DNA of 63,122 nucleotides, the filler included, from Dirinaria sp. TL-2023a (lineage: Eukaryota), in assembly GCA_051941275.1 (NCBI GenBank). It is 8 parts of 8 records of this genome, joined end to end, with 100 filler letters (N's around TTAATTAATTAA, not from the genome) between each part and the next. Parts side by side here need not be neighbours in the genome. Positions count along the whole stretch, not along the records: positions 1 to 7,849 come from JAVEBF010001265.1; 7 more parts are not named here. The stretch is one strand, 5' to 3'. The position numbers and the translations under genes were made by a program. How positions within the stretch are numbered: position 1 is the stretch's first letter; each line of letters begins with the position of its first letter. The notes under the pieces were generated by a model. The model saw nothing but the letters and a program-made list of their open reading frames with translations, was not told where the DNA came from and made no database searches. Below are positions 1 to 34,934 of the stretch, piece by piece.

Positions 1-1050
1 CTTTCAAACTCAATAACATCAGATCGAGAATCTCAATTCGTGACTATCGTTTGAAAGTCACTATGTAGACGTCTAGACATTAATTGCAAGTTGTCAACTG
101 CCTTTCACCCTGAAACTGATGGTCAAACGGAACGCACAAATCAAGATGTGAAAAAACAGCTCCGTCTATATTGTAATCACATGCAAGACGACTGAGTTGA
201 TTTACTACTCATTGCGAAGTTTGCAGACAACAATGCCGTTTCTACAGCAACAGACATGACTCCCTTCTTTGCAAACAAAGAATACCATCCGCGCATGACC
301 TTTTCATCGAACGATATCAAATATGCTACTGCCCGCGATCGCATGTAGACAGCAAAGACTGAAAATATCGCTGATATCATGCAAAATGTTCTGAAATTTA
401 TGCGCTCCACGGCGCAGAATTCTCAGCAGACAATGAAGAATCAAGCTGATAAGCACCGCAAAGAAGTTTTCTATGAAGTCGGCGATCAGATATTTCTATT
501 CAGTAAGAACATCAACATCGATAAATCATCAAAGAAGCTAGAAGACAAGATGTTAAAACTCTTCTCGATAATCAAACGTCATGATATTGCCTATGAGCTA
601 AAACTATCTGACACAATGAGAATACATAATGTATTTCATTCTAACCTGCTTCGCAAAGATCCTGATGACCCCTTATCAGATCAGATACAAGAACCTTCTG
701 ACAAAATAGTAACCGACGAGAGCGATGAATGAGAGCTTGCAGATGTTGTCAACTCGAGATGACATCATGAGCGCTTACAATATCAGTGTCAATGAGTTGA
801 TTGAAAGCACCGCAATAGAACTTGATATCATACTGATGAGAGTGAGTTTAAGCACGCAAAGAATATAACTAACGACTTCCACACACGATATCCTGACAAG
901 CCTGACGACGCAAATAACAAGGCTTCAAACACCGACAACAAAGTCAACAAACGCAAGAGCTCAATATAATGACTAAAAAACTTGGTTGAAGCCTGGTCAA
1001 ATCTTATTTTAACCGCAACAGAGACGTTGCTTATTGAAGGGAGAGGATAA
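1..1050 (+). pseudogene. Hypermutated copy of the 3' end of the adjacent chromovirus (integrase C-terminus, chromodomain, 3' UTR, PPT)
   Basis: Aligns to 5886-6935 at a constant offset of 5885. The differences I checked are C->T or G->A, with several TGG->TGA stops. The PPT is degraded to GAAGGGAGAGGATAA. Confidence 0.95.
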
Positions 1051-1324
1051 TGTCATGAATCTAGACCTGTAGCACCTTAGGTCAGGTCACATGACTCCCT
1101 GAACCCTGAAGAAAGGTCCTTGATATGTGATTTGGCCTATACCAGATGTTTTGTTAGAGGTGGTTTGGTTTTGCCTTATCAGACCTAGCGTCCCCGAACC
1201 GATATTACTTCGAGCCCCTATTTGAGTTTTCCTGTAGATAGATTTCCTTTCCTTTTCTTCTTCATAGTTAGTGTCCTAGTCTATTTGTACCCATATGCCA
1301 TTGAGCGCTGTGCAGGCCCTGACA
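1051..1324 (+). repeat. 5' LTR, shared with the upstream mutated copy
   Basis: TGTCA...TGACA. 12 substitutions versus 6936-7209 by manual alignment. Confidence 0.95.
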
Positions 1325-1326
1325 TT

Positions 1327-1337
1327 ACACTAACTAT
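1327..1337 (+). promoter_or_regulatory. Self-priming primer-binding site
   Basis: ACACTAACTAT, 2 nt after the LTR, is the exact reverse complement of ATAGTTAGTGT at 1264-1274 inside the LTR. Confidence 0.8.
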
Positions 1338-1419
1338 CAACCTTACCTTTGCACTCGTCGGCGTTGCACGAGTAAACCAAGCAATCGCAAGAAAAGACCT
1401 TATACTTATAGGAACCAGT

Positions 1420-2928
1420 ATGCCTAGGCAGGTATCAGACCCCCGAGCCCAGCTCACTCAGGCCTCCTCTGTCGCCAATTATGAACCCATTGACGATGCG
1501 GCCTACCTCCCTCAGATGGTGAAAGACCTATTAAAGAAGACGGCAAACCGCCGCGTGTCGGTACTGCCAGAAGAATCGGAAGACTCTCCGTCGGGAGCAG
1601 ATCAAGCAGACTCCCCGAATTTCATCAATACTGTCGACCAATTGAAGCATTGGGTCCGTAACGACGGCAATGCAGTTCTCGACCTTATTAAGGAATATCG
1701 ATTGGAGCGCGACGCAGCATTGCGCTGCCTAGAAGATTGGAGCACTATGTTGAACATGAGAGATAAGGCAATGGATCAGGCCAGACGGGCCCAAGATAGA
1801 CTTCAAGTGGCTAAACAAGATTTTGAGAATGAGAAGGCTATGAATTTAAGTCTCAATGATCAGTTGCAAGAAAAGGATGATGTGGTACGAGATCGCGATA
1901 TTGAGATATCGGCATTGAAAGAGCAATTGCTCGTTGCCGGGGTTGTTGACTCTGATGGAAACCCGAATCCCCTCGGTAACGAACGTCAACATCGGCGTCA
2001 GCGAAGCAGAAGCAGAAGCCGATCGTCTATGACTTCCTCCTCACGTGCAAGGAAGTCTGCTAAGGTGCCAGACCCTCCAGTACTTACTGACGGCAATGAC
2101 CCCACCTACATCAATTGGCGTCTGCAAATGACGGACAAGCTTCGCATCAATGCGGACCACTTCTCTAATGAGGCAGACAAGGCGGCCTATGTTTGTTTAC
2201 GGGTAGGCGGTGACGCCGCAGACCATATCAATGCTTATCGGATTAATGACCCTGACTACTTTAAGAACCCTCAACAAGTCATGGGAGCACTAAACAGCAT
2301 TTACGAGGATCCGAACCGTCAGGAAAATGCTAGACAAGAATTTAAGCGCCTAAAAATGCATCCGGATACTCCTTTCCATACCTTCTATGTTCAATTTCAC
2401 CGTTGTGCCACCGTTGCCGCCATACCATCGGACTATGTTATGATGGAATTAAAAGAGAGGGTTCTTCCGCGCATGCAAAAGACGATGACTGACAATCCAC
2501 CTAATGCAACAACATTAGATGAGTTGAGGACGTACTTGACTCAACTGGATAATCGTCAACGTCATTTCATTGCAAATCGGGCAAACAATAAATCAGAAAC
2601 AGGCACGAGTGGAGCTGCTTCGGTTTCTGCCAGTGGTGCTGCTACTTTAAAGCCTTCAGCCAATGCACCTATTCGTGGCTCAACACCTGTGGCAACTACA
2701 CCTAACCCACCACGTTTTCGGGACAGTACCCCAGTCCATACTAGTCGACCCTACATTTCGGCATCAAAGGATACCCTCGAACGTAATCTATGCAGGAAAT
2801 GCGGTGAAACCGGTCACTATGCCAACGATTGCCCGCACCCTCGCATCAACCAAGAAGCTCGCATTCACGAGGTTGCCATTGACGGGGAAGACGAAGACTC
2901 TGCTAGTCAACAGTCGGAAAACGAGTAG
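1420..2928 (+). CDS. gag: Retrotransposon Gag
   Basis: First ATG downstream of the LTR in this frame is at 1420 (MPRQVSD). Coiled-coil region, PDPPVLTDG..PTYINW capsid-region motif, CRKCGETGHYANDC zinc knuckle. Confidence 0.92.
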   Translation: MPRQVSDPRAQLTQASSVANYEPIDDAAYLPQMVKDLLKKTANRRVSVLPEESEDSPSGADQADSPNFINTVDQLKHWVRNDGNAVLDLIKEYRLERDAALRCLEDWSTMLNMRDKAMDQARRAQDRLQVAKQDFENEKAMNLSLNDQLQEKDDVVRDRDIEISALKEQLLVAGVVDSDGNPNPLGNERQHRRQRSRSRSRSSMTSSSRARKSAKVPDPPVLTDGNDPTYINWRLQMTDKLRINADHFSNEADKAAYVCLRVGGDAADHINAYRINDPDYFKNPQQVMGALNSIYEDPNRQENARQEFKRLKMHPDTPFHTFYVQFHRCATVAAIPSDYVMMELKERVLPRMQKTMTDNPPNATTLDELRTYLTQLDNRQRHFIANRANNKSETGTSGAASVSASGAATLKPSANAPIRGSTPVATTPNPPRFRDSTPVHTSRPYISASKDTLERNLCRKCGETGHYANDCPHPRINQEARIHEVAIDGEDEDSASQQSENE

Positions 2929-5900
2929 CCGCCGGCAGTGACGCACCGGTTGGCGAAGTAGTCATATCGAGCAATGCATTTGATCAGGGACCACACGATC
3001 GACCTCCCTTGTTGGCCGATTGCTCTCTAACCTTATTGGGTAAAAGATATGACTCCATGGCTTTAGTGGATACTGGCTCGCAAGTATATTCCGCTATCGA
3101 CGAGGAGACGGCCGATGAGGTATGCAGATTCTTAGGCCTACAACCTATACCCCTTTCGAGACCTCGCCCGGTCAGGGGATTCAATGGAGTGCTCAGCAAA
3201 AGGCCTATAACGCATGCTATATACCCCTCCCTGACTGTCAACAATCATTCGGAACTTACTTGCCCCATGCTGATTACTCAATTGGGCACTCATAAGGTCA
3301 TACTAGGGAAACCCTGGATGAACCGGCACGGCTTGAAGTTGGATATGGAGACGGACCGGGTAATTTTCAAGAAAAGAAAGTGTAGGGAGTTAGGATGCCG
3401 ATTCGAAGGAGCCTATAAGAATTCAATTCCACAAAAAGCAGTCCTACCTTCAGGAACTCCTACACCGACTTCTGCAGGAGCATCTTCCCCTGCAGTACCT
3501 AGCCTTCCGAGCTATACGATTTTGAAAAGGACACACAACATAGGTGGATCTAAGAAGAAGTCTGTGCCTACCTCGCTAGTGGTGAAACCCCCTACTACTA
3601 TTGCAAGTGTGCAGGAAGAAGGACCGGCCGATATTCAATTAGTTAGTGCGGCCGCATTCAACATGCTCTCCCAAAAGGAACGCCGCAATAAAGAAGGCCT
3701 CAAACTATTCTCCCTTACTATGTCACAGTTAGATCGAGAACTTCATCGTCGATCCAACACTGCAAAGAAGAAGAATGATGTCGGGCCGACAATATCATCA
3801 ATGGCTATGGAGGATATCATTAAGCTGATTCCCCCGGAGTATAAGGACTTAGCTGAGGCCTTCGATCCTAAGAAAGCAAAGGAGCTACCTCCCCATAGAC
3901 CCTATGACCACAAAATCGAGCTCACCGGTGATTCCAATCAACTACCTAAGAGCCGGGTCTATCCTATTTCGGACTACAAGCTACAGAAGTTAAAGGAGTA
4001 CCTTGATGAAAACCTAAAAAAGGGCTTCATTAGTCCGAGCTATGCCCCTTATGCTTCCCCGATATTGTTTGCCGCCAAACCTAATGGAGGACTACGAGTT
4101 TGCGTTGACTATCGCAGGCTGAATGCCATTACCAGGAGGAACCGATATCCTATACCCCTTATTGAGGAGACCCTTGCCAAAGTCATAGGATGTAAGTACA
4201 TGACGAAGTTGGATGTCATTGCCGCGTTCAATAAGCTTCGTATGCATCCTGATAGCGAAGAGCTCACAACCTTCATCACTTCGCTAGGGGCCTATAAATA
4301 TCATGTGCTTCCTTTTGGGTTAACTGGCGGTCCGTCAAATTATCAACACTATATGAACGACGTGCTATGGGATTATATCAATGAATTCGTGTCAGTATAC
4401 CTGGATGACATTCTGATTTATAGCAAGACCCGCAAGGAACATGTAAGGCATGTGCGGTTAGTGCTACAAAAGCTTATTGATGCCGGCTTACAAGTGGATA
4501 TCCAAAAATGCGAGTTCCATGTGCAGGAGACTACCTTTCTTGGGGTGCTACTTTCTACCGAAGGCCTGCGCATGGATCCTAAGAAGGTGCAAACGGTGGT
4601 TGAGTGGCAAACCCCTACTCGATTGAAAGAAGTCCAGAGCTTCATCGGTTTCTGCAACTTCTATCGGCGATTCATCAAAGGCTTTTCGCGCATAGTCAGG
4701 CCTATGGTTGCATTGACCCAGAAAGATGCCATATTCCATTGGAACGAAGCGTGCCAGGAGGCATTCACTCAATTGAAGCAAGTAATCACCACCGCCCCCG
4801 TGCTTAGGCATTTCGACCGCAACCGCAAGGCAGTTCTAGAAACTGACTCCTCGGACCATATTAATGCCGGAGTCCTTTCTCAATACGATGACGAAGGCAT
4901 GTTGCATCCAGTAGCCTTCTACTCCAAGAACATGTTGCCTGCGGAATGCAACTATGAAATATACGATAAGGAGCTGCTTGCTATAATAAGATGCCTGGAG
5001 CATTGGCGACCGGAACTTGAGGCTACCGAGTTACCTATTGAAATATTCACTGATCATAAGTCTTTGGAGCATTTCATGACCACGAAAGAGTTAACTCGTC
5101 GTCAGGTTAGATGGGCAGAAAAGCTTAGTGAGTATAACTTCAAAATAATGTACCAAACCGGAGCCAAGAATGTCAAGGCCGATGCACTCACACGTCGCCC
5201 CGGAGATCTGCCACAAGGTGATGATGACCGCCTTGCATATCAACATCGCACCTTGTTGACCCCTGACCGTCTGAAAATTCATGCAATGGAACCCGATCAA
5301 CAAGCCCCAATACATGACCGCATACTGACGGCCAACCGCGACGATAAGGAGTGCAACAAAGTCCGTCAACAAATCGAGCTGGGGGACACTTTTTACAATA
5401 GGATCCGGCTCAGGGATTGCACTGTTAGGGACGGTATTCTATACTATCATAACCGCCTATGGGTGCCGGGTAACATGGATCTACTAGTAGGTCTTCTTAA
5501 GGAGACACACGAAGCCCCTATGGTAGGCCACCCTGGTGTGTCTAGGACCCTAGACTTAGTCCGAAGGTATTACTTTTGGCCTAGGATGAGGCAAACCATT
5601 ATTCAGTTCGTACGAAACTGCTATGGTTGCCTAAGATCAAAAGCGCCTTTGGATAAGTATAATGGCTTACTAGTACCTGCCTCAGTACCGCAACAACGAT
5701 GGCAAGATATCTCTATGGATTTCATTACCGGGCTTCCTATGTCAAGAAGGAAAAATGCAATCTGCACCATCATCGATAAGTTAACTAAGGAGAGGCACTA
5801 TATACCTTGCACGGCGTTGGAGGAAGGTACTACTGCAGAGGCAACAGCGGAGATACTGCTACAATGGGTATTTCGCACCCACGGTCTTCCAAACTCAATA

Positions 5901-6854
5901 ACATCAGATCGAGGACCTCAATTCGTGGCTACCGTTTGGAAGTCACTATGTAGGCGTCTAGGCATTGATTGCAAGTTGTCAACTGCCTTCCACCCTGAAA
6001 CTGATGGCCAAACGGAACGCGCAAACCAAGATGTGGAAAAGCAGCTCCGCCTATATTGTAATCACATGCAAGACGACTGGGTTGATTTACTACCCATTGC
6101 GGAGTTTGCAGACAACAATGCCGTTTCTACAGCAACAGGCATGACTCCCTTCTTTGCAAACAAAGGATACCATCCGCGCATGACCTTTTCACCGGACGAT
6201 ACCAAATATGCTACTGCCCGCGATCGCATGCAGGCAGCAAAGGCTGAAAGTATCGCTGGTACCATGCAAAATGTCCTGGAATTTATGCGCTCCACGGCGC
6301 AGGATTCCCAGCAGGCAATGAAGGATCAAGCTGATAAGCACCGCAAAGAAGTTTCCTATGAAGTCGGCGATCAGGTATTTCTATCCAGTAAGAACATCAA
6401 CACCGATAGACCATCAAAGAAGCTAGAAGACAAGATGTTAGGACCCTTCCCGATAGTCAAACGCCATGGTATTGCCTATGAGCTAAAACTACCTGACACA
6501 ATGAGAATACATAATGTATTCCATCCTAACCTGCTTCGCAAAGATCCTGGTGACCCCTTACCAGGCCAGGTACAAGAACCTCCTGACAAAATAGTAACCG
6601 ACGAGGGCGATGAATGGGAGCTTGCAGATGTTGTCAACTCGAGGTGGCACCATGGGCGCTTACAATACCAGTGTCAATGGGTTGATTGGAAGCACCGCGA
6701 TAGGACTTGGTACCATACTGATGGGGGTGAGTTTAAGCACGCAAAGGATATAACTAACGACTTCCACACACGATATCCTGACAAGCCTGGCGGCGCAAAT
6801 AACAAGGCTCCAAACACCGACAACAAAGTCAACAAACGCAAGAGCTCAATATAA
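2907..6854 (+). CDS. pol: Retrotransposon Pol (protease, RT, RNase H, integrase, chromodomain), in the -1 frame relative to gag
   Basis: The frame is open from 2907. Motifs: LVDTGS protease, YLDD RT, ETDSS/DKELLA RNase H, HHCC plus DDE-type integrase, C-terminal EWELADVVNSRW..LQYQCQW chromodomain. Confidence 0.96.
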   Translation, partial: STVGKRVAAGSDAPVGEVVISSNAFDQGPHDRPPLLADCSLTLLGKRYDSMALVDTGSQVYSAIDEETADEVCRFLGLQPIPLSRPRPVRGFNGVLSKRPITHAIYPSLTVNNHSELTCPMLITQLGTHKVILGKPWMNRHGLKLDMETDRVIFKKRKCRELGCRFEGAYKNSIPQKAVLPSGTPTPTSAGASSPAVPSLPSYTILKRTHNIGGSKKKSVPTSLVVKPPTTIASVQEEGPADIQLVSAAAFNMLSQKERRNKEGLKLFSLTMSQLDRELHRRSNTAKKKNDVGPTISSMAMEDIIKLIPPEYKDLAEAFDPKKAKELPPHRPYDHKIELTGDSNQLPKSRVYPISDYKLQKLKEYLDENLKKGFISPSYAPYASPILFAAKPNGGLRVCVDYRRLNAITRRNRYPIPLIEETLAKVIGCKYMTKLDVIAAFNKLRMHPDSEELTTFITSLGAYKYHVLPFGLTGGPSNYQHYMNDVLWDYINEFVSVYLDDILIYSKTRKEHVRHVRLVLQKLIDAGLQVDIQKCEFHVQETTFLGVLLSTEGLRMDPKKVQTVVEWQTPTRLKEVQSFIGFCNFYRRFIKGFSRIVRPMVALTQKDAIFHWNEACQEAFTQLKQVITTAPVLRHFDRNRKAVLETDSSDHINAGVLSQYDDEGMLHPVAFYSKNMLPAECNYEIYDKELLAIIRCLEHWRPELEATELPIEIFTDHKSLEHFMTTKELTRRQVRWAEKLSEYNFKIMYQTGAKNVKADALTRRPGDLPQGDDDRLAYQHRTLLTPDRLKIHAMEPDQQAPIHDRILTANRDDKECNKVRQQIELGDTFYNRIRLRDCTVRDGILYYHNRLWVPGNMDLLVGLLKETHEAPMVGHPGVSRTLDLVRRYYFWPRMRQTIIQFVRNCYGCLRSKAPLDKYNGLLVPASVPQQRWQDISMDFITGLPMSRRKNAICTIIDKLTKERHYIPCTALEEGTTAEATAEILLQWVFRTHGLPNSITSDRGPQFVATVWKSLCRRLGIDCKLSTAFHPETDGQTERANQDVEKQLRLYCNHMQDDWVDLLPIAEFADNNAVSTATGMTPFFANKGYHPRMTFSPDDTKYATARDRMQAAKAESIAGTMQNVLEFMRSTAQDSQQAMKDQADKHRKEVSYEVGDQVFLSSKNINTDRPSKKLEDKMLGPFPIVKRHGIAYELKLPDTMRIHNVFHPNLLRKDPGDPLPGQVQEPPDKIVTDEGDEWELADVVNSRWHHGRLQYQCQWVDWKHRDRTWYHTDGGEFKHAKDITNDFHTRYPDKPGGANNKAPNTDNKVNKRKSSI

Positions 6855-6920
6855 TGGCTAAAAAACTTGGTTGAAGCCTGGTCAAACCTTATTTTAACCG
6901 CAACAGGGACGTTGCTTATT

Positions 6921-6935
6921 GGAGGGGGGGGGTAA
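6921..6935 (+). promoter_or_regulatory. Polypurine tract
   Basis: G-rich run ending GGTAA directly before the 3' LTR. Confidence 0.9.
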
Positions 6936-7209
6936 TGTCATGAACCTAGACCTGTAGCACCTTAGGTCAGGTCACATGACTCCCTGGACCCTGAAGGAAG
7001 GTCCTTGGTATGTGGTTTGGCCTATACCAGGTGTTTTGTTAGAGGTGGTTTGGTTTTGCCTTATCAGGCCTAGCGTCCCCGGACCGATATTGCTCCGGGC
7101 CCCTATTTGAGTTTTCCTGTAGATAGATTTCCTTTCCTTTTCTTCTTCATAGATAGTGTCCTAGTCTATTTGTACCCATATGCCATTGAGCGCTGTGCAG
7201 GCCCTGACA
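6936..7209 (+). repeat. 3' LTR
   Basis: 274-bp direct repeat of 1051-1324. Confidence 0.96.
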
Positions 7210-7849
7210 AAAAGAGCATATTAAGATCTGCACTGCATCTTGAAGATCGAATACTCTGATTAAAGAGTACATTTCGTATTCTATCACTTCGAATATTTAC
7301 TGATACGTTTCTTCAGAAAGTTTGAGTCGAAGAATAGAACACGTTCTATGATCGCGTCATTTCTCGTGTGATCGTAGAATCTTTGAGATTACGCGCTATT
7401 GCAACTTCAAATACTCGAGCAGTGATAGACAGCATGTTTTATGTGACACAAGAAATATAGAATATTAGATCGTTTTCACTCATTGAAGTCAGATTGACGT
7501 CACAATTGAGGTCGAGTTATTGCACTGAGTCTTTTTCAGAGTTCAACACACGAATGATTGCAATCTAAAATTCTATAGTAAATAGACAATCATCTAGAAA
7601 AAAATTTAAGAGCAACGCATTCTTTTCATCGATGATCTCGACAGATCTGAAAATTTAGAAACGAAGAAAATGCGTCGCGAATAACTGAGAGAGTTATTGC
7701 TTTTTTCGAACTCGAATCTCGTCGACTCTCTGTCATGAATTTTTCAACAATTCTCTGATTTCTTGACGCTCTTTTTGCAGACTCAAAATTCGTCGGGCGT
7801 TTATATCTCGAGATAAAGAAATATTTTTTCTAGATTTGCAGTGTTATAC
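7210..7849. repeat. AT-rich, CC/GG-depleted degenerate repeat relic of unknown family
   Basis: Almost no CC/GG dinucleotides, TCGA-rich, no ORF. Confidence 0.55.
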
Positions 7850-7949
7850 NNNNNNNNNNNNNNNNNNNNNNNNNNNNNNNNNNNNNNNNNNNNTTAATTA
7901 ATTAANNNNNNNNNNNNNNNNNNNNNNNNNNNNNNNNNNNNNNNNNNNN
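7850..7949. other. Artificial contig linker. Same linker at 15784-15883, 23691-23790, 31594-31693, 39496-39595, 47374-47473 and 55250-55349
   Basis: N-run, TTAATTAATTAA (stops in all six frames), N-run, 100 nt each. Contig lengths decrease monotonically. Confidence 0.98.
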
Positions 7950-10046
7950 ATGTATGTTTGATTTTACGCTTTAAATCTATTATTAATTATATCTCGAAAT
8001 ACTTTAGAATGCGATCATTTCTAATTAGTTTGAAGTAAAAAACATTGAATGACTCAATGCTCATTCTAAAATGATAATATTCATGATTGATTTTTTTTAT
8101 TGATTTTATCGTACACACTCTTCAATATTTTCAAAATCATTAAATAAATTCGAAAATATAGTTTTTTCGAAATACGATGTGCATTGATGTGAGTAACAGT
8201 TTCATCGTCAATGCGTTGCATAACATAAATTGTTTTAATTGTCTCTGAGACAAAATGATTCTCATTGAATATTAATTTGTCGATTATTTTGTTGAATCAA
8301 TTCTCATATATCGAGTTCTTGTCATCTATAAACATAGATGAGTCAGATATTTTGATTAATCGTTGTATATATGTTTGATTATTTGTTTGAGAGACATGAG
8401 ATATTTCGTTTTATAATATTTCGCGCTGTGCACGCGCTGCGTTAAGCTCTGCAATCAATCGTTCGTTTTCGATTTTTAGTTGATCGACACTCTACGATGC
8501 TTCGCGTTGAGCACGTGCGAGGACGAGTTCGACAGTCAGTCGTTCATTTTCGACTCTTAGTTGATCGACATCGATTTTTAATTGATTATTTTTCTCATTT
8601 AGACGAGTATTCTCGTTCTCAGCACGATCGTGTCTGAATTGCAATTTGATTCAATCGTTTCTTTATTTAATAATTTTTTCTCGAGCTATATTTTGACGTT
8701 TTTGTGCGTCAATGACAATGTCGTTTGCTGTATCGCAATTCGAGACTAATTTATTTTAGTTATTCACACAATAAAAAGCGATATCGCGTTCAATGCGTTT
8801 TATTTTTATCGAGTTCAACATTTTCGTCGAACGTCTGACAACTTAATATTGCAATTGAGAAACTATATAAATATTCTTCGACGTGTTTGCGTTTTCAAAC
8901 TCAAACGACGCATTATTTGATATTATCGACACGCGAAGTTTCTCTGTTCTTTTCAATAAATACTGTAATCGTTGTGCTGAGATTATTGTCAACTCGTCAG
9001 ACGTCTCAGACAGCAATTGTCGCGTCGACGTCTCTTTTTCTTTCTGCTCTTGAGTCGAAATCTAAATCTGTGTCTATGCTCTCTCGTTAACGTCTTTAGT
9101 CATTACTGTATCGTCAATCGTCGTACTTCTTTTTTATTACCTCGCGAAACAACGAGGATAAAAGATAAAATGTGTCAAAGACCCAACCTTGGTTAGATAG
9201 GTTTCCCAATGGTAAAAGTCCCGGCATGGCCAAAAGACTAACTAAACCAAGTCAAAGAACTTGGTGCCTATCTTATTATTTATGTTTCAGGATCGTAACA
9301 TTACCTCGATCCCTCGGCTTAGCTTCGTTCCGAAGCTAGCGTTGAGAGAATTGAGGAGATTCAAGATTCTGTAGAGGATGCTAGCTAATCAGAGTGACTC
9401 ATGACGCTTAGGAATCAATGCACGTCTATCGGAACAAGTAGTCGCCCCGAGCTTAGATAAGCTCTCAGCTGACAGACCTCGTCGAAAAACAATCCTTTAA
9501 GCGTTCGAGCTGAGATTCGAACTCAGAATCTTGCGACCGTGTTGACTTGATTTAATGTCAGAGACCCAACCTTGGTTAGATAGATTTCCCAATGGTAAAA
9601 GTCCCGGCATGGCCAAAAGACTAACTAAATCAAGTCAAAGGACTTGGTGCCTATCTTACTACTTATGTTTCAGGATCGTAACAAAATGTATAAACAACAG
9701 TGTTCAGTTCAATTGTAAATAACAACACAGATGTTGTTGCGATTGTTTGAAACTCGTAAAATTGCAAAACGAGATAAGAGGTTTGATGTTTTGTGTAATG
9801 TCAAGATCGATGTAGAAAATATGATCTATGTAGATGTTATCAACTAAATACACAAAGCATGAAAAAGAAAAAAAATCTATAAACTAAAATTAGACATAAT
9901 ATGAGTGTGTGAGTGTTGAACTCTGATCGGCCGAGTCTATCGTCACTTCGAATGCGTTAAACTCGATCAGGTCAAAACACAACATCACACACAAAAATCT
10001 CGTAGAAAATAAGCCGGATAATATCAGTGAGAACATGCTCGTAACA
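7950..10046 (-). mobile_element. Heavily degraded chromovirus relic (5' LTR about 9799-10046, leader, gag), related to the intact element
   Basis: Minus strand at about 8297-8365 reads KISDSSMFIDDKNSIYEN*, versus intact Gag KVPDPPVLTDGNDPTYINW. The LTR/leader junction TGACA-TTACACAAAACATCAAACC resembles TGACA-TTACACTAACTATCAACC. Confidence 0.75.
9173..9683 (-). mobile_element. 511-bp TRIM-like non-autonomous LTR element
   Basis: Two 128-bp direct repeats (9173-9300, 9556-9683; TGTCA...TAACA), 255-bp non-coding interior, 5-bp TSD AAATG (9168-9172, 9684-9688), minus-strand purine-rich tract GAGGGATCGAGGTAA next to the 3' LTR. Confidence 0.9.
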
Positions 10047-11048
10047 TGAAAAAGTTTTTAAAAATACTTTGAAAGATGTTTTGAAACAAATAATTACGAG
10101 ATGATGAAATGTTATATAAACAAATATGTGATGTCATTGTTGATATTATTTAATCATCGCGTTTTTACATTTAATCGTTGTATTTTCGTTTTTCGTAAAA
10201 TATATCAGACTTCATTTTCGTACTCATCAGAATCATATTTAGTCATTGTCGATGCGATATCTGATAATGTCAGAGTCATATCTAGTTATTGTAAGTGCGA
10301 TATTTGAAAATATTAGAGTCATATCTAGTCATTTGAGATGTGACGATCTCATATTTCGCAGTTTCAGAGTCAATTGTGAGATTGCATCTATAGAATCTAG
10401 AACTCTAGAAATTCTAGAAATTTTTATGTCATTGCGATACATTTTGATGCATACTTGCGATAATTTTTGTCTCAAAAATCTCGCGTTATTCTCGTGATTA
10501 TTGAATTAGGTTATCTGGTATATTAATAAATGAGGGGGTAGGTTCAAGGAAGGTTTGCACTATCCCAATTTGGTTAGCTTTGGCGCTAGCGGGCGCGTTC
10601 CATCCGCAGTGCCAGGTCACTGTAAGGTAAGGACCAAAAATTGTATATTTACGACCTGATTTTCGTGGGACTGCCTCGGGCAACCTACGCAGCGTGATGT
10701 CGTGATACTGTGTAGACACTTTAAATCTGTTGAAGTCTCTGCTCTTCCTTGCCTTCTCCGCGGACCGTCGAATATCCTCAATGATTTGCTATCTGGAAAC
10801 GCTGTCCTGGGCAAGTATCGCAAATGATAACTGGGGATAGCCCGTGGGTCTCCAAGCAGCGATTGGACATATTTGCTGGCAATGAAGCAAGTCAAGTTCT
10901 ACGACGCGCAATCGATACATGGATATTTAATTTGCTGATATGTACAAATCTCCACACCCGCTGGGGGTGTTGCATTATGGCCAGAGGTTTCATGCCTGCC
11001 TTGAAGCCCCTTTTGTACAGACAAATATTGCTTTGTTTAGCCAGCCAC

Positions 11049-12219
11049 CTATATTCCACGTTTCATCACGCTTCTAATGTCCCAAACCAGCAACCTTTCG
11101 TCCCATCCGCAACTAGCACACCAACCTTCTGCACCGAAAAGACACCAGTCCACTCCCATCACAAATTCTGTATGCCTTTCCATCCTCCCAGTCTCCTCTC
11201 CAAAGCCTCCCAGCATCAAATCTCCCCTCTCGTCCTTCACACTGTTACCGTCTGTCCATGCCCGGCAGGTCATGTCATAGCTCCCACTCAGTAACACATC
11301 GCTAAGGTGCGGGCTCCATGCTAGTTTTCTCACAGCGTAGTCATGACCCACGAAGATAGTCAACGGTCCGTTACCGGGAGCTCTGATGTCGAAAGTGCGG
11401 ATGTAGCGGTCTACCCCAGCGACAGCGACAACGCTGGAGCGGTATTTATTCCAGTCATGTGTTAAGGCTTCGGACGGTGGTGTCACAGCGGGATGTTGTT
11501 GGAGGCGGTTCAGGCCCAGACCTTGTGGGGTACGGTGCAGCGGAATGGTAAGGGTGAGGTGATTAGAAGCTGAAGATGGGGTTCGAAGGTCAAAAAGGCG
11601 AAAATGTGAGTCTGACGATACGGAAGACAGGATGGACGGTGAATGAGGTGAGAAGGCGGCACTGTACGTGCAGGAATGGGTTGGGAGTGTGAGCAGGGAG
11701 TCAGCCCGCTGAGGAGACCACTGCATGTTGGTGTAAGATCGAAACTCTACAGTCGCTCGGTTGACAAGGGGCTAGGCATACGATCTTGATTGAGCCATCC
11801 CATGAGCTAGAACAGAAGGTGTCCTTGGTGACCAAGTTCCAGTGGACCGCGAAGACCTCACGCTTATGCTCCTGCCATGACTGGATGGGGAACTCGTTGA
11901 GTGCTACATCAAAGAGCTTGATGGATCCATCCCCTGTTGCTACCACAACTTGATTCTCGTGGACTTCTGACCACGCGAGGTCATAGAGGGAGTCTTGAGT
12001 ATCAAACCTTAGCAAGTCGTGAGCGGCAGAAAAGAGCTGCGGACACCCAACGTACTGATTTTCTACGACAATACCCTTCGGCGTCAACCCAAGGATGTAC
12101 AGCCTGCCATTGCCAACCAGACCAAAATTGGCAGAAGATGCAACTGCTAGTCGAGAATCGAAGAATGGTGAGTATTTCACGGCATAGCCATTGAAGCTTT
12201 CAGTACGAAATTCGAGCAT
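11049..12219 (-). CDS. PEX7: Peroxisomal targeting signal 2 receptor (WD40), 3 exons
   Basis: MLEFRTESFNGYAVKYSPFFDSRLAVASSANFGLVGNGRL N-terminus, WD40 repeats (SSSWDG, SGSYDMT, HTEFV..DW), two GT-AG introns linking the ORF-track pieces. Confidence 0.93.
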
Positions 12220-12436
12220 TGTACTTGATGCGTTACCTGGAGCGCCAGCAGTACCGTTGAAGGCGCATGACATTAGTGCGTACCGCCCTCTACTACCAAA
12301 CTTACCTTGGATCTACGAGTACCTGGATGCAATCTCACATATGTAGATACTCATGTAGATTTAGACTACATTGATGACCCAAGTCAATTGCAGAAATTAC
12401 CTATTGCAAGTCCGCGGCCTTCTAATCACTAGACAG

Positions 12437-12484
12437 ATTTTTATTTTTTTATTTTTTTATTTTTTTATTTTTTTATTTTTTTAT
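12437..12484 (+). repeat. (ATTTTTT)n simple repeat
   Basis: Direct reading. Confidence 0.85.
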
Positions 12485-12827
12485 GTTTGGACAACACGAT
12501 AGGGTCGCCAGGTAGTTGATTAATCTATCAATTCTCTCAATTTAAAAAACATTGACCATGTTCAGATGTAAAATATCAAAATTTTAACATTTTGTTACTA
12601 GTTTTGCCTTCTCAAATCTCAATGGATATGCAATAGATAAAGACACAGTAGTCTTGTGCAGCACAAGGGGTACTTGGATCCTGGCCGAAAATCATGCTGT
12701 GCTTGAGGGTCAGCCAACACTTATTATCAATCGTTTTTGTAAATGAATATTCAGAAATCTTAAACAAGTTCTACGCCTTCGATCATATCATGAGTATATT
12801 GTAAACTTTGGTACATGCAATTAAGGA

Positions 12828-14354
12828 TCAATTCCACCAAAAACTGACGCTAAAGCTTGTGGTCAAGCTCCTCACATAATGCCACCACCCAACTGGAATA
12901 TAGAGACTTTCGCCTTCGCCGAGAATAGTCTCGACATATCTCGCTTCTTTGAATAGCGGAAAGTGTCGCCCAAGCTCATCCGCGTTACCTTCCACATCTA
13001 GTTCACTTGTATTGCTCATATCGACACCAGCCTCGCTGCCCATTGCGTAGAGCCTCTGAGTCTGGTCAGGGTGGTACAGTCGAACGTACTTTTTCCCAAC
13101 GACTTGACAGAGAATGTTGTGGTAAGGGTCTGTATGGAGGGGGGACACTGTGCCAGCTGGGCCAAGCCAGGCATTGAGAGTTGGCTCGGGAAGTTTAGGC
13201 GGAGGCGCTTTGCCAGCAGTTCCGTCAGCCACCGATTGCGGAGGCTCGCTGAAGCAGTAATCTGGAATAGAGATATCATTTCGTAATGACGGAATTTGAG
13301 AGAAAAGGTCATGTTGGGCTAGATAACCAATTTCATCCTTCCCGTGTGGTTGCAAGTTTGATCCCTTATACATCTGTTCTTCTCTATTTGCATCGGAATC
13401 GTTGGTGGCAGTTCTCTCCCCGCGGTTCTCCTGTAGCATGAACTCGTCCATGAATGCTCCAAAGCGGATGATCCTTTGACCCCATCCTTCATCAGTGTAG
13501 CTCCTCCCCACCTCCACCGGCACCAATCTTCTGCCCCCGAACGTCTTCTCTCTCAGATAAGTTGGACTCCGCCACGGCCTTTCATTCAATGCTGGCCAAT
13601 GCTCCAAAGCACCCTTGATAACCAGTGGGCCTTTGCTGTCTTGAAGGTGTCTCTCGAATGCTGAGATCGAAAGTCTTGTGGCCGACGACATTTGATGTTG
13701 GATAAAATCGGACTGGTGAAATCCTTTCATGTTAAGTGGGAAAGTATCCTTGTACTGAACTTCGTGCGTGAGAAGCTTCCGGCGCTTCTTGCGCAATTGT
13801 TCGTCTCCGTAGCCGTGCGGATAAATGTTCATACCCTGTTCTAAGTAGAGGCGTAGGTGGTCAATGATCGCATCGATCATATTCCTGCGACTGTCTGCAC
13901 CAGCCATAATGATAGCCATATCCAGCACGTTCACCGCCTCTTGCACCCAGTCTTCAAGTGGGTCATGCGAGTTCTTGCTCTTAAAACAATCATCATGGGG
14001 CCGCCCGCCCCCACCATTCTTACCTAGAGTGTCCACTAGAGTGTTCCTATCCTCAAAACGACTGTTCTCTGAGAGCGCACTACATATCCCATTTTGTATG
14101 CAATATATTGCATACACAAGACTCGCATCGGTGAAGAGCCGCCGCCAGCAATCAGGTACTTGGCTGTAGGGCCATGTGTAAAGCTTTGAGCGGGCAAGGC
14201 GGATCACGGACTCAGGATAGGTGGGGAGAGCCAGCAGTACAGACTTAGGACAGCCAAGCAGAGCATCATCGCTGGTTGGTGGTGCAAGGAGTGTTTCGAG
14301 TGAGCTTGCGAGACTGTCATTGAGATCCTGTGAGTGCATGAATCCCTCCGGCAT
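12828..14354 (-). CDS. JmjC-domain protein, JMJD5/KDM8-like
   Basis: RLVPVEVGRSYTDEGWGQ, GYLAQHDLF, LHTDPYHN (HxD), GWWHYVRSL..SVSFWW. Confidence 0.88.
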   Translation of the reverse strand: MPEGFMHSQDLNDSLASSLETLLAPPTSDDALLGCPKSVLLALPTYPESVIRLARSKLYTWPYSQVPDCWRRLFTDASLVYAIYCIQNGICSALSENSRFEDRNTLVDTLGKNGGGGRPHDDCFKSKNSHDPLEDWVQEAVNVLDMAIIMAGADSRRNMIDAIIDHLRLYLEQGMNIYPHGYGDEQLRKKRRKLLTHEVQYKDTFPLNMKGFHQSDFIQHQMSSATRLSISAFERHLQDSKGPLVIKGALEHWPALNERPWRSPTYLREKTFGGRRLVPVEVGRSYTDEGWGQRIIRFGAFMDEFMLQENRGERTATNDSDANREEQMYKGSNLQPHGKDEIGYLAQHDLFSQIPSLRNDISIPDYCFSEPPQSVADGTAGKAPPPKLPEPTLNAWLGPAGTVSPLHTDPYHNILCQVVGKKYVRLYHPDQTQRLYAMGSEAGVDMSNTSELDVEGNADELGRHFPLFKEARYVETILGEGESLYIPVGWWHYVRSLTTSFSVSFWWN

Positions 14355-14640
14355 CAAGTGTCCTTTGAAGCGTTCAAAGTATCGTATGATTCCGTAGTGG
14401 CTCTGTTACCCATTTTCTCGTATCCAAATACCTCCCGCCTTTTCGACGTCTTGATGCCTCCAAGGATGTTTTGTCTTAGGTTACAATAACACATTCCGCC
14501 TGCGGGAATGTCAAGATCGCATGCAGCATCAGCAGCACGATCGAAGTGACCTCAGGCAGGATCCATGACATCCGGGGTTAGCACAGGTTTAGTTCAGCTC
14601 ACCCCTCAGCGTTCGGGGTAAAGTAAGATAAGATAAGATA

Positions 14641-14778
14641 CTCGTATTCACCTACTTTCTTGGGAGGGTTAGGGTTAATCCCCACCAAAATTTCTACAAC
14701 CCTACTTGACTTTGGGTTATGAAGATCTTGGTGGTAAAACCCTAACCCTCCCAAGAAAGTAAAATAGGTGAATACGAG
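14641..14778. mobile_element. 138-bp foldback/MITE-like element
   Basis: CTCGTATTCACCTA/TAGGTGAATACGAG and ACTTTCTTGGGAGGGTTAGGGTT/AACCCTAACCCTCCCAAGAAAGT inverted arms. Confidence 0.7.
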
Positions 14779-14928
14779 AAAGGTACCATAGAAACAACCT
14801 CAGTGTCGAGCAAATTTTATGTTGGAAATTCTATGTGCTTATCTCCATGTCACGTGTCGAGTAGACTTACTCGATAATCACGTGTCGAGAAAGATTACTC
14901 GAAATAACGTGTCGAATAATATTATTCG

Positions 14929-15654
14929 TGTTATGGACCAAATGATGGGCCAAATATAGTGACATTACCTATAAGGTAGATAGTCAAAATAGCTAATAAT
15001 AATCGAGATGCCCTGGGAAATCTGAGTGCAATCGCCTGCTAAATAGATCATATCTATCTTAAAGAGTTTCGTCATAGACTCGAAAAATATGTGAAATCGA
15101 CATTGATGCGAAATGCGTCAAATGCATGATGCGAAGTCATAAAAGTAAACACTGAACCGATGCCAAAATACTGTTGCGTCTTCTACTATCAATCTAGGTT
15201 TCCAGGTATCTAATAAGAGATGCTAGAGTTTGATCTGTTGAAGAGATTCAGTTCAGGAGCAACGAGTGTCAACGTGATAGAGTAAGTATCACACAAAATA
15301 AGTACTTAGTACTTGTAACAGTAGTAGACAAGTTAACTGAGATTGAACACGATGTCAGAAGAGCGTCGTGTTGAAGATCTATATAGTAGTTCTTCTGCGC
15401 TAAATGATCAAGAGGTCTAAGCATCAGATTCTCTTGAACTACTTGAACTAATCAAGATGTCTAAGCATCAGGTCCTCTTGAACTACTTGAACTAATCACG
15501 TGATTATCAAGTTCAAGCGCCAAGAAGATGCGCCTCCTTGATCATGATGCGTCCCTGTTCCTCAGACTACCGCATAAAGGTAGGTCACAGCACAGGGTCG
15601 CAACAAATATTAATACTCAAAGTGCTAGTATCAAGTATGTGAAAAATTATAACA
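14929..15654. mobile_element. 726-bp solo LTR
   Basis: TGTTAT...ATAACA ends, 5-bp TSD ATTCG (14924-14928, 15655-15659), internal 44-bp tandem duplication at 15407-15494. Confidence 0.82.
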
Positions 15655-15884
15655 ATTCGACACGTGATCGATTTTTTATATATTATAAATGAGTCGGTCT
15701 CTTAATTTTTAAATAATAATTATGCGTTTTTTTTTTTTTTTTAATTCTTACTCGATTCAACATTCACAAGGGGTCTATGCGAGNNNNNNNNNNNNNNNNN
15801 NNNNNNNNNNNNNNNNNNNNNNNNNNNTTAATTAATTAANNNNNNNNNNNNNNNNNNNNNNNNNNNNNNNNNNNNNNNNNNNNG

Positions 15885-21010: not shown

Positions 21011-23791
21011 GGCTCAAGATTCAAAATGCTCGAGCACGAGAGAATGTAAGAGCAATGATTGGAAAGAGGGAAAAAGAAAGATGCCTCTTAGAAACGTAAA
21101 TATGGGTTGACAGGGCCGAAGGCTGACGATACTAAAAAAAAAGGTCTAGACTCAGAATGCTACGCGCCGGTGGCTTTGCGACCCCAATCTTTGTGTACCC
21201 AGGAGAACAAGTCAACAGCACTGAATGATTAAGACAAGCACAATGTAGAGCGGGTAGACCCGAAGAATTATATAGATCGAGCAGTGTGCAGCTACAACCT
21301 GACTCACCTTTCGAATGCAGGCTGAGTCTTTGCTGCATCTTTTCCTTCTTGAATAAAGAGAGGGCTGAGTGGGAGTAGAAAACATTTGAGGGTATCATGC
21401 AGATAAGGTTCGCGACCGGGTACGGAGTACAGAGGACGACGCCATAAGTCCAGGCTAGCCCAGTCAAATGAAAGTCGCCCGGGGGACCACCTAATAATGC
21501 CGTAAATCGAACGGGCCAACCTACTAGGTATGTAGAGTGCAGCTGTTCTCTCCAAAGCGTATCTGTAGTACCTCGAAGACTGGCCTTGACGTACGTGACG
21601 CTGGCCAGGACTTTTGGCGTCAACCTACGTACTCAAATTCCACTTGGAAGACGTATCAGTAGATGCTTTCGAGACATCAGGATCGCCTTGCAAAACAGCT
21701 GTGGCAAGATTACGCCGATAGCGTACGGATACTCAGTACACTTTCGAGAAATTAAGTGGCTTGTGGCTGATGCGAAAGGGAAATTGCGTGGCTGGGGAGG
21801 CTAGGAGCACTGCCACCCTCTGAACGCCGGCAACTTTTCTGAATTATCCCACTACTTCTCCTTCCCATGTTCACTATCGCCCGCTCTTTGTGCTTCGAAT
21901 TACCCACCATCAGTCTGGAAAATGGGATTTGTGGAAAATATGACAGTCTTGATGACAGGAGGATTTGGCCCCCTCGCACCCTCGGAGTACATACCTACAC
22001 ATAGCCATCCCCAAAAGGTTATGGTAAGCGAAATTAGAGTAATTCTGGGTTAGACGCTCGGCTGAAAAAGCTGACCAAAGTTTATGGTTTGCAGAAATAA
22101 GTAGTAATACCCGAGCCGCCTCAAGCGAATACCAAAGATGAAGGATCAACTTCAGATAACAAGCCAATGGACCTCACGCTGCATATTTCCGGATGTTCAG
22201 CATCGAGACATTATGGGCACCGCGAGGCGAAAGCAATTCTCTAGGGTCCAGAGACGATAATACCTTGGGAAGCTCATCTAAAGTTCAGACGATGAGATCA
22301 GCAAGGAATGCGCCAAGTGGACTCAACCATTCAAAGATAGTTCTTAGCTCATCATCTCTTCCCCTATTGAAGATATTACGTTGCAAGTTCGCAAGATGTT
22401 GCGTGCGTGGTTACATTCACTCTACGGTCACTTTGTCAGCACTACCTAGACCATGGTGTAGCACCTCCATTTCAATTATCAACGGTATAAAATTACAACA
22501 CCTCCAAACTCTATCTAGCGAGATTATTCAGGTTCGTATGTCGAAGTACATTCTTTTAGAATCCTGGATATACACGATTGTGACCCGGAGAGAGTACTTT
22601 CCGCATTGAGTCAACATCGTGCAGAATGAGAACAATGATGCCAAACACACGCAACCATGCACATTTTCACGCATAACCAGCTGGTAATTCATCGAGAACG
22701 GACCTATGAAGAAGTATTTGAACCCTTGCCGGCGAGGATTTATTTGCAAAAGGAGCTGTCATGTCCATAAAACAGCATAAAAAACTACAAGTCTCTTCAC
22801 CCTATTCTTCGTGGAAGGAAATTTTCGAAGAGCGACCTTTACAAACACTGGGGAAACAGCCGAAGCGCAACACAATCATCTTCGATCAAAAGACCGAGTG
22901 TGAGATGACGTGTACGAAATAAGAAATAGTCTGACCATCGACAGACAACTTACGACTTCGTCAAATGCTCTGTGGGTTACTGCTGATGCGTCTCGTGATA
23001 GATTTCGTTTTTACTTGACGTCACGCGGCTGCAAGATCTGAAACGTATGACTCGATAGTTTTTGCAGCTTCGATCAAGCTGTGCCGCCACATCCTGCAAT
23101 CTCTATTCTTTGCCAAGCCATAAGCATAATTTCTAACTTAATCTAAGACAACCAACACCAAGGAGCATTACGCGTCAAAATGCATCAAAAGTTTAAGTCT
23201 GAATCTTTGTTCATCTCTCTGAAGCTTCAATTGGGTGTATATCATTGAAAACGGGAGTGGGAGTTTCACAATACGAATCAGCAGCCGACTCTGTTGACCT
23301 GCTCTAGCTGGACCTTGTCATTTATCAAGTCGATTCTCGCATCATGTCGGATCTCGAAGTCAGAAACCCTACAAAAAGTCAGCGTAAAGCTTTTGTAGAT
23401 CTTCCAGTCAGCTGCGCTATTGGCTATCGTTGGGGTAAACCCTCTGAAATTTAATCAAGGAATCTGCCATGACAAAGCTGAAAGCGGACCGTGTGCCCCA
23501 AACCACAAAAAGATATTAAGGCGATCATTGCAGATATTTTTGCAGGATTCAGAAAGAATAGAGTATCGATAGGTGGAAAGGCAGACACGGAATATCCGCA
23601 CTCTTCGTTTCAGAAACGCAGTATCTGGTTAAGCGAAGCGAGCAGAACGCGCGGCTTGCCATATAGAGCTATATCAGTCATGCTATGTGTNNNNNNNNNN
23701 NNNNNNNNNNNNNNNNNNNNNNNNNNNNNNNNNNTTAATTAATTAANNNNNNNNNNNNNNNNNNNNNNNNNNNNNNNNNNNNNNNNNNNNG

Positions 23792-33929: not shown

Positions 33930-34934
33930 ACAAAGTGGTTCGGAACCGCATGGCTTATATCTGATTCAACCCCCGCGGGAAACAACCAACTTCCAGGAAA
34001 AAGTTCGGGCGGCGAAGGAGGGCAGAGAGAGGAGAAGGAAGGATATTTGCTGTACCCACAATGTATATATAGATATAATAGGGTCCCACTGCCGCCACAC
34101 CACCGTACTCTGCTGCCGCACACATATCACCTTCACTTTGCTGCCACACCGCCCACTTCCCACTGATGGTTTTCATCTACCAGTAGTCCCTCCCTCTCTC
34201 TCTTTATCTAAATTTTTTTTCTCTGAACTTCGGTATAAGTTTCCTTTATAACGCGATCTGCTCACTATTTGACGCGAACGACGCATTTTCGTTCGCGGTG
34301 TTGTAAATCCGATTCCATCGTCCCCACATCTCGTGAAAACCGCCGTTTTGCTTTAGAAATTTCCTACGCACACAGACCCTGGCCTGTCTAGAGCAGGAGG
34401 AAAATGGGATATAACATCCTCCACTACTGTGGCGCGAGGATCACGGCGTGGCGAGACATCTGATGGATACTTGGACTTGGGAGTACTGGGACTCGACTGA
34501 GGTTTTGATACTTATGGTAGTTTCGGTCAAAGTTGCAAATTATTATTGCTAATCCTTTATTTCCTTAAGGGAATAATCTTCTCGTCGCTTTCGGAATGAT
34601 CTCCGAGCGTGGATTTAGATCTTGTGTAAGTTGGCTGAGCCGAGGTCGTGGCTCGTATCTAAGGTAAGCCTGTGGCTCGCTCAACTCTTCTAATTCACCC
34701 CGCTGTCCGAGATAGCGAGAAAGCGAAAGGCAGTCTGATTATCACAGCAAAACCTTTAGATGTTTCGGCGGTGACGACGGCTAGTCGCCGCTACTACAAA
34801 GTATACTTTATATCAGCTTTCTGGTCAATCGCAAACGCACGTTTGTTCGACCATTCGTCTGTGCTGTGTACGTCAAAGCATATATTTTACTTATTCTTCT
34901 TGTCGATATTCAGGAAGACTTTCATGTCGCCGCC

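Follow-up and report, generated by a model that had tools for sequence, protein, structure and literature searches.

The window analyzed here, a stretch of 63,122 nucleotides (filler included) joined from eight parts of the Dirinaria sp. TL-2023a genome assembly GCA_051941275.1, begins with a partial long terminal repeat (LTR) retrotransposon copy, copy A (1–1213, plus strand), that differs from an unmutated counterpart on the same strand (5886–7209) almost exclusively by C-to-T and G-to-A changes. The question raised by this locus is which process made these changes, at which target and in which kinds of DNA. An initial annotation of the window had described a hypermutation akin to repeat-induced point mutation (RIP), with a strong preference for CpC. 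Our analysis leads us to regard it as moderately probable that a lichen-forming member of the Ascomycota (Caliciaceae; Dirinaria or a closely related fungus) defends its genome through RIP-like hypermutation directed at the 5′ C of CpC followed by any base other than C (C*CD, where the asterisk marks the mutated base).

Direction, context and strands of the mutations in copy A

Copy A, truncated by the start of the window, extends from the C-terminus of pol (1–966) through the polypurine tract region into an LTR, of which it holds the first 163 nt. The blastn alignment of 1–1324 with 5886–7209 was gap-free over 1324 columns and showed 96 mismatches. With 5886–7209, which includes a 3′ LTR at 6936–7209, taken as the unmutated reference state, these mismatches consisted of 61 G>A, 34 C>T and a single A>T, the C or G always standing in the reference. 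Copy A therefore carries 95 one-way transitions relative to 5886–7098, and no change in the opposite direction was found. The most frequent codon changes in its pol frame were Pro>Ser (10), Gly>Asp (8) and Trp>stop (7), with Gln>stop occurring once, in agreement with the Pro-to-Ser, Gly-to-Asp/Glu and Trp-to-TGA pattern first noticed in the sequence. Derivation of the counterpart from copy A through A>G and T>C changes was ruled out, as the frames of the element to which the counterpart belongs (element B, see below) are intact and those stop codons lie in copy A. The initial annotation had taken the counterpart for the source copy, allowing mutation direction to be read directly; the direction is indeed legible, with all 95 changes pointing the same way, but 5886–7209 is an unmutated relative and not necessarily the literal source.

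Analysis of the dinucleotide context, read from 5886–7209, assigned 85 of the 95 transitions to C*pC, five to CpT, three to CpA and two to CpG. Recounting reproduced exactly the figures first reported for nt 1–180 (16 substitutions: 13 at CpC, with CpA, CpG and CpT contributing one apiece) and for the LTR part 1051–1324 (10 of 11 transitions at CpC). The specificity for CpC persisted after normalization to the sites available in 1–1213: 85 of 160 CpC were mutated (53%), compared with 1.6–3.5% for the other contexts (CpA 3/183, CpG 2/98, CpT 5/143; Fisher odds ratio 46.9, p = 1.7e-45). The +2 base modulated this rate, with 39 of 49 C*CA, 32 of 58 C*CT and 10 of 24 C*CG mutated versus 4 of 29 C*CC, and the effect of the 5′ neighbour was weak (47–64%). 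Because CpC rates are high before A, T or G and low before C, with little 5′ influence, the target is the 5′ C of CpC followed by a non-C base, CCA being favoured and C*CC refractory. This context rules out canonical RIP, given the CpA rate versus that of CpC, and likewise TCG-type hypermutation, given the CpG rate and the fact that a single one of the 95 mutations is at TCG. Since the two copies are otherwise identical, with 95 targeted changes versus one other, the mutations arose in a burst and not by gradual decay.

The C>T and G>A changes are interleaved along copy A (54 runs observed versus 44.7 expected), which bears on a possible role of a cytidine deaminase, AID/APOBEC-like or of another family, editing transposon DNA or reverse-transcription intermediates. 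Such an enzyme would account for hypermutation that is purely C>T and for retrotransposons being the chief targets in the window, and primate APOBEC3G, which also inactivates retroelements by C>U conversion, likewise uses a CC context. The substrate of APOBEC3G, however, is single-stranded minus-strand cDNA, in which the 3′ C of CC is deaminated, on one strand only and with GG>AG as the outcome, whereas the mutated base here is the 5′ C (GG>GA) and no strand-coordinated tracts are seen on the molecule. Moreover, deaminases of the APOBEC type take their guidance from the base 5′ of the target, whereas reliance on positions +1 and +2, as observed in copy A, typifies enzymes of the cytosine methyltransferase type, RID among them. 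The process also reached a relic of a DDE_1 DNA transposon, non-coding flanks and a cellular NLR-like gene, all presented below. One-strand cDNA editing is thus ruled out by the interleaved strands and the 3′-set context, and a deaminase of any kind appears to us quite improbable.

Copy A is joined to an intact Ty3/Gypsy-type element, element B, with its internal region at 1325–6935 (plus strand). Its open frames, gag of 579 aa (1189–2928, with the first in-frame ATG at 1429 by eye) and pol of 1315 aa (2907–6854), were matched in Pfam to zf-CCHC and to RVT_1, RT_RNaseH, Integrase_H2C2, rve and SH3_Tf2-1, respectively. The gag zinc knuckle, the order reverse transcriptase–RNase H–integrase and the flanking LTRs are those of Ty3/Gypsy elements, and the observed/expected ratio of CC/GG in element B is 1.09. 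A 274-bp LTR with the putative ends TGTCA...TGACA can be placed at 6936–7209, with its counterpart at 1051–1324 (plus strand), because a purine run precedes 6936 and the homology stops at 1324/7209. The layout from the window start is internal–LTR–internal–LTR, and the LTR at 1051–1324 appears to be shared, closing copy A on its 3′ side and opening element B on its 5′ side.

The hypermutated tract terminates within this shared LTR. Its final mutation is at position 1213, and none of the 14 CpC is mutated in the remainder (1214–1324, plus strand; P = 2.6e-5 under the 53% rate), where the sole difference from the counterpart is the A>T at 1268. A switch from mutated to clean sequence inside an LTR is a classic place for a misjoin, so that a technical origin has to be weighed, either a chimeric join at 1213–1324 or modified C miscalled as T in silenced copies. 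A misjoin accounts for the junction only and not for the mutations. Furthermore, the total absence of CC/GG encountered in older DNA needs iterative conversion, C*CC being refractory in one pass (4/29). Together with the recurrence of the signature in other assemblies, shown further on, this makes an artefact very improbable in our view.

Purged relics and other affected sequences in the window

Element B is inserted in an old retrotransposon relic (7210–9139, minus strand) in which the loss of CC/GG is saturated. With a GC content of 33%, the 1853 called bases of 7230–9170 retain six CC/GG, compared with about 100 predicted from composition, and keep 109 CpG; the observed/expected ratios of the relic are 0.07 for CC/GG and 1.97 for CG. 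The gag relic previously noticed near 8300 was located at 8093–8977 on the minus strand of this nearly CC/GG-free DNA and is 26% identical to the gag of element B by tblastn, and a Pfam search of all three minus-strand frames of the relic found no transposon family. A continuation of the purged DNA, to which no strand was assigned, occupies 9684–10508. It shows six CC/GG in the 801 nt of 9680–10480 and none in 10017–10508, and CC/GG are dense from 10509 onward. The borders of the purged DNA are abrupt at both 7209/7210 and 10508/10509, and CpG and CpA are kept in both of its parts.

These two parts are separated by a miniature LTR element of 511 bp (9173–9683, plus strand), with LTRs of 128 bp each and the target duplication AAATG on either side (9168–9172 and 9684–9688). 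Its LTRs are 95% identical and differ at six positions, each a transition and three in CpC context, with changes on both copies (four and two). The CC/GG density of this element is normal, although it lies inside the purged relic. Because both element B and the miniature element have a normal CC content within the relic, the sequence of events can be read: the old relic was purged to saturation first, and copy A/element B and the miniature element were inserted afterwards. With its duplication (9168–9688), the miniature element resembles a terminal-repeat retrotransposon in miniature (TRIM), with LTRs starting with TGTCA, a perfect 5-bp duplication and no coding capacity.

A partly CC/GG-depleted intergenic patch at 14800–15520 (no strand assigned) contains 0–7 CC/GG per 100 nt versus 11–17 per 100 nt in 14401–14800. 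It includes a 44-bp tandem duplication (15407–15498), to which the signature had also been attributed: two of its three mismatches are of the CC type. Near this patch, a 109-nt imperfect palindrome (14653–14761), 80% identical to its opposite strand, is located about 250 nt past the low-coordinate end of a JmjC/cupin frame (12828–14405, minus strand).

The signature had likewise been reported in an NLR-like gene, which we found at 34785–37512 (plus strand) with, according to Pfam, a SesA N-terminal domain, a central region and four TPR_10 repeats. All five of its in-frame internal stops (35805, 36294, 36651, 36849 and 36858) are TGA, and two more stops, at 35565 and 35607, are probably located within an intron starting with GTAAGT. 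CC plus GG amount to 4–15 per 200 nt across much of the gene, which was apparently inactivated through the same mutation signature. Its tandem TPR_10 repeats of 126 bp (42 codons; 36992–37330) are 86–87% identical to each other and show many G/A differences in both directions.

In terms of CC/GG observed/expected, copy A (0.62) stands between the relic and the genic remainder of the window (16001–63122; 0.93). Within the window, the signature was observed in transposon copies, relics, short LTR pairs and one gene of a paralog family, the NLR-like gene, and not in the genic remainder. Such a distribution could be produced without homology sensing if heterochromatin or transposon silencing directed CC-context methylation by a maintenance or de novo methyltransferase and the resulting 5-methylcytosine was then deaminated, spontaneously or with enzymatic assistance. 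Indeed, the signature occurs in transposon-rich, AT-rich DNA with abrupt borders, and an intact element B beside a mutated copy A is easier to understand if the silencing state picks the target. The 95 targeted changes versus one other in copy A speak instead for a burst, and the mutation of 53% of CpC with only 2 of 98 CpG affected also counts against this account. In addition, the NLR-like gene is not a transposon, and the young miniature LTR element has kept a normal CC content inside the relic. We therefore consider methylation of silenced DNA followed by deamination unlikely as the origin of the signature.

Public contigs and proteins carrying the signature

Scanning metagenome contigs with the pol of element B yielded four loci, L001 to L004. 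In L002, L003 and L004, CC/GG observed/expected is 0.00–0.01 across 13–24 kb at about 30% GC, with three CC/GG counted in positions 1–14400 of L003 and five in the 13,763 nt of L004. The corresponding ratios are 1.44–1.55 for TC/GA, 1.41–1.54 for CA/TG and 0.51–0.58 for TA, and CpG is partly lost (0.38–0.68). L001 displays the classical CpA-type RIP pattern instead (CA/TG 0.46, TA 1.42, CC/GG 1.24); the fungi from which these related records derive thus show both types of mutation. At 10001–13895, L001 holds a related Ty3-type element (pol 52% identical) with CpA>TpA RIP, adjoining a normal ZPR1 gene. No DNA similarity between the window relic and L002–L004 was detected by blastn, and tblastx gave weak gag-level matches.

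L002 and L003 represent one locus in two assemblies (99.74% identical), purged in both (1–15783). Of their 41 differences, 39 are transitions at remaining C:G pairs, which suggests an ongoing loss of C, or polymorphism, within a population; slow continuing loss of this kind would also suit methylation of silenced DNA. Comparison of L003 and L004, which are paralogous purged copies, revealed C/T or G/A at 620 of 713 mismatches, the context in the C-bearing copy being CpA for 340, CpT for 235 and CpG for 44. After exhaustion of CC, the remaining cytosines are thus lost more slowly. In the partly mutated interval 14400–18000 of L003, the surviving CC comprise 40 CCT, 7 CCA, 5 CCG and 7 CCC, which points to CCA as the preferred target in this locus too. 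The purged pol of L003 could be aligned over 1341 columns in a single frame, with no frameshift seen. The purged DNA of L003 also holds a relic of a DDE_1 DNA transposon, and the process is therefore not bound to reverse transcription.

The protein collection was then searched with the L003 relic, its stops written as X, and the best 120 matches were taken. Pro and Gly together made up less than 2% of 102 of these 120 proteins, which still carry 1–3.5% Trp. When the Trp positions of such proteins were compared with L004, TGA was found at 12 of 19, 9 of 12, 9 of 15 and 15 of 17, and TGG never; most likely, gene callers read TGA as Trp in these proteins. Many of the public entries concerned (P0241–P0360 in our numbering) are 700–1270-aa "proteins" essentially without Pro or Gly and with 1–3.5% Trp. 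In one protein family from JGI and NCBI contigs, the Pro content of the copies grades from 4% down to zero, mostly through Pro>Ser, and Gly>Asp/Glu changes are also seen. Between P0303 and P0311, 51 Pro positions correspond to 31 Ser, 11 Leu and 7 Phe, with two kept, and 25 Gly positions to 14 Asp, 6 Glu and 1 Lys, with four kept. Several ENA, Logan and JGI fragments related to element B have the same excess of Pro>Ser and Gly>Asp/Glu. The purged protein P0244 is matched by 8962 representatives at E<=1e-30, and a scan of viral_contigs with P0311 returned no match. Occurrence in contigs of three other assemblies, purging of one locus in both L002 and L003, and predicted proteins from JGI, NCBI, ENA and Logan sources all argue against miscalled bases as the cause.

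Regarding the host, a search among shorter proteins with the pol of element B gave a best match of 77% identity, from Lasallia pustulata, and found no near-identical copies; the nearest named relatives are transposon fragments of L. pustulata, with 50–77% identity. The ERG4/ERG24 frame at 56649–57776 of the window is 99% identical to a protein from a Dirinaria sp. metagenome-assembled genome, and the following named matches come from other Lecanoromycetes (73–78%). Taken together, these matches suggest that the window belongs to a lichen-forming fungus in or close to the family Caliciaceae.

Proposed mechanism and relation to known systems

One-way change without indels on both strands, specificity set by 3′ neighbours, varied targets, sharp borders and saturation together fit an enzymatic, episodic process acting on repeated double-stranded DNA. 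The best reading is that it works like RIP, with a new C*pC target. As in the RID- and DIM-2-dependent RIP of Neurospora and other Pezizomycotina, only C:G>T:A changes occur, in bursts, at many sites on both strands and without indels (95 of 96 differences, 0 gaps over 1324 columns). Transposon copies and paralogs are targeted, borders are abrupt, AT-enriched relics accumulate and the base 3′ of the C decides. Unlike in RIP, the target is C*CD and not CpA, and TpA is not enriched (TA observed/expected 0.5–0.67). The relics halt at about 30% GC and keep CpA; the window relic also keeps CpG, which L002–L004 have partly lost.

These departures are reflected in the classical RIP indices, which are negative in CC-mutated DNA: the CpA preference of RIP, with its high TpA/ApT and low (CpA+TpG)/(ApC+GpT), is absent. 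The mutated kilobases gave 0.58–0.59 for TpA/ApT and 1.21–1.44 for (CpA+TpG)/(ApC+GpT), compared with usual thresholds of >0.89 and <1.03 (PMC3897900). The expectation that TpA-based indices would miss this signature is borne out by these values.

In the mechanism that we propose, bursts of activity on double-stranded repeated DNA would convert C to T on both strands (CC>TC and GG>GA) without indels, and repeated rounds would clear every CC/GG from a repeat, CpG and CpA being mostly spared. Coding sequence would be ruined via Pro>Ser/Leu, Gly>Asp/Glu and Trp>TGA changes. The trigger may be sequence duplication, sensed premeiotically, and we infer that the action depends on homology, that is, that it is repeat-directed in the strict sense. 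A homologue of the RID/Masc1- or DIM-2-type cytosine methyltransferases is the candidate enzyme because 3′ neighbours set the specificity, as in methyltransferases; its register would be shifted to C*CA instead of CC*A. Another enzyme lineage might be involved, and the acquisition of a CCD-type methyltransferase like those of chloroviruses would be pure speculation. M.CviPII of chloroviruses, a CCD-specific cytosine methyltransferase, is reported to modify the first C of CCD and would thus share both motif and target base with the process deduced here, but it is a restriction-modification enzyme of viruses of green algae, and no link to fungi is known, no search aimed at such a gene having been made; we mention it as a lead only. 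That some lichen-forming fungi possess an undescribed repeat-directed C*CD mutator, whose repeated rounds strip every CC/GG from transposons, seems to us an evenly balanced proposition.

Several observations weigh against a RIP-like origin. Both members of a duplication are normally mutated in Neurospora RIP, whereas one member of the visible pair (5886–7209) is unmutated, with 0 changes versus 95 in copy A. Element B (1214–7209) is untouched over 1324 comparable nt, though it adjoins a mutated copy with 92.7% identity, and its two long frames (579 and 1315 aa) have stayed open. The strands are unequally affected, with 52 of 79 CpC mutated on the minus strand versus 33 of 81 on the plus strand (p = 0.0016), an asymmetry that is greatest toward the LTR (801–1200: plus 4/26, minus 21/39). 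No methyltransferase or deaminase domain was found in the larger frames of the window. Among the 150 best representatives matched by P0244 at 50% clustering, only 4 are Pro/Gly-free, a proportion that is no measure of how widely the signature has spread.

The untouched element B beside copy A requires a secondary explanation: it may have arrived late, been brought there by recombination or been joined chimerically in the assembly. In the simplest account within the RIP-like mechanism, copy A would have been mutated earlier together with other copies and element B joined to it later by LTR–LTR recombination, with a crossover in 1214–1324. Element B would have escaped by arriving, or being joined, after the last mutagenic (sexual) episode, no later round having followed.

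Non-CpA targets of related processes have been described in other fungi. Horns et al. (2012) reportedly found TpCpG-targeted hypermutation of transposons in Microbotryum and other Pucciniomycotina. That process resembles the present one as a RIP-like C>T change on transposons with a non-CpA target, and indicates that the context can vary between lineages. In these basidiomycetes, however, the C of TCG is hit, whereas here CpG is spared (2/98 in copy A) and has become relatively enriched in the relic (observed/expected CG of 1.97).

In a kingdom-wide screen of 2025 (PMC12543289), a preference for CpA was concluded to be common to RIP-like defences. The accessible parts of reports on RIP in Cladonia rangiformis (PMC12542154) and Xanthoria (10.1101/2025.11.25.690456) rely on GC content and RIPper indices, describe AT-rich DNA of 10–20% GC and contain no mention of CpC. 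As far as these parts of the reports go, our locus shares with both the lichen-forming Lecanoromycetes host, the AT-rich transposon-derived compartments and the abrupt borders; L001 matches their type of RIP, and the window and L002–L004 show the opposite pattern. The full-text literature covered, which did not extend to most subscription journals or to supplements, yielded no paper describing a CpC-dominant process, and none of the terms looked for was present in OcculterCut.

If this reading is true, relics of about 30% GC score as "no RIP" under every standard index, and public databases are filled with Pro- and Gly-free pseudo-proteins in which TGA is read as tryptophan. RIP is judged across fungi by TpA-based indices, and a saturating CC process would mean that surveys are blind to one mode of defence, at least in lichen fungi. 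The signature also accounts for odd entries, namely long "proteins" that lack Pro and Gly and have TGA codons at their Trp positions. This calls for caution before such contigs are assigned to bacteria or to a genetic code with TGA=Trp, and metagenome binning of the AT-rich regions of lichens may be affected. Setting the RID and DIM-2 homologues of lichen fungi with CC-type mutation against those of lichen fungi with the CpA type would offer a natural experiment on the choice of the target base, and an enzyme converting C*CD on double-stranded DNA could be of interest for base editing.

Finally, paired runs of 44 N recur in the window (7850–7949, 15784–15883, 23691–23790 and onward, about every 7.9 kb), for a total of 616 N. 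One of these paired runs lies within the purged relic, and they look more like masked stretches than assembly gaps.

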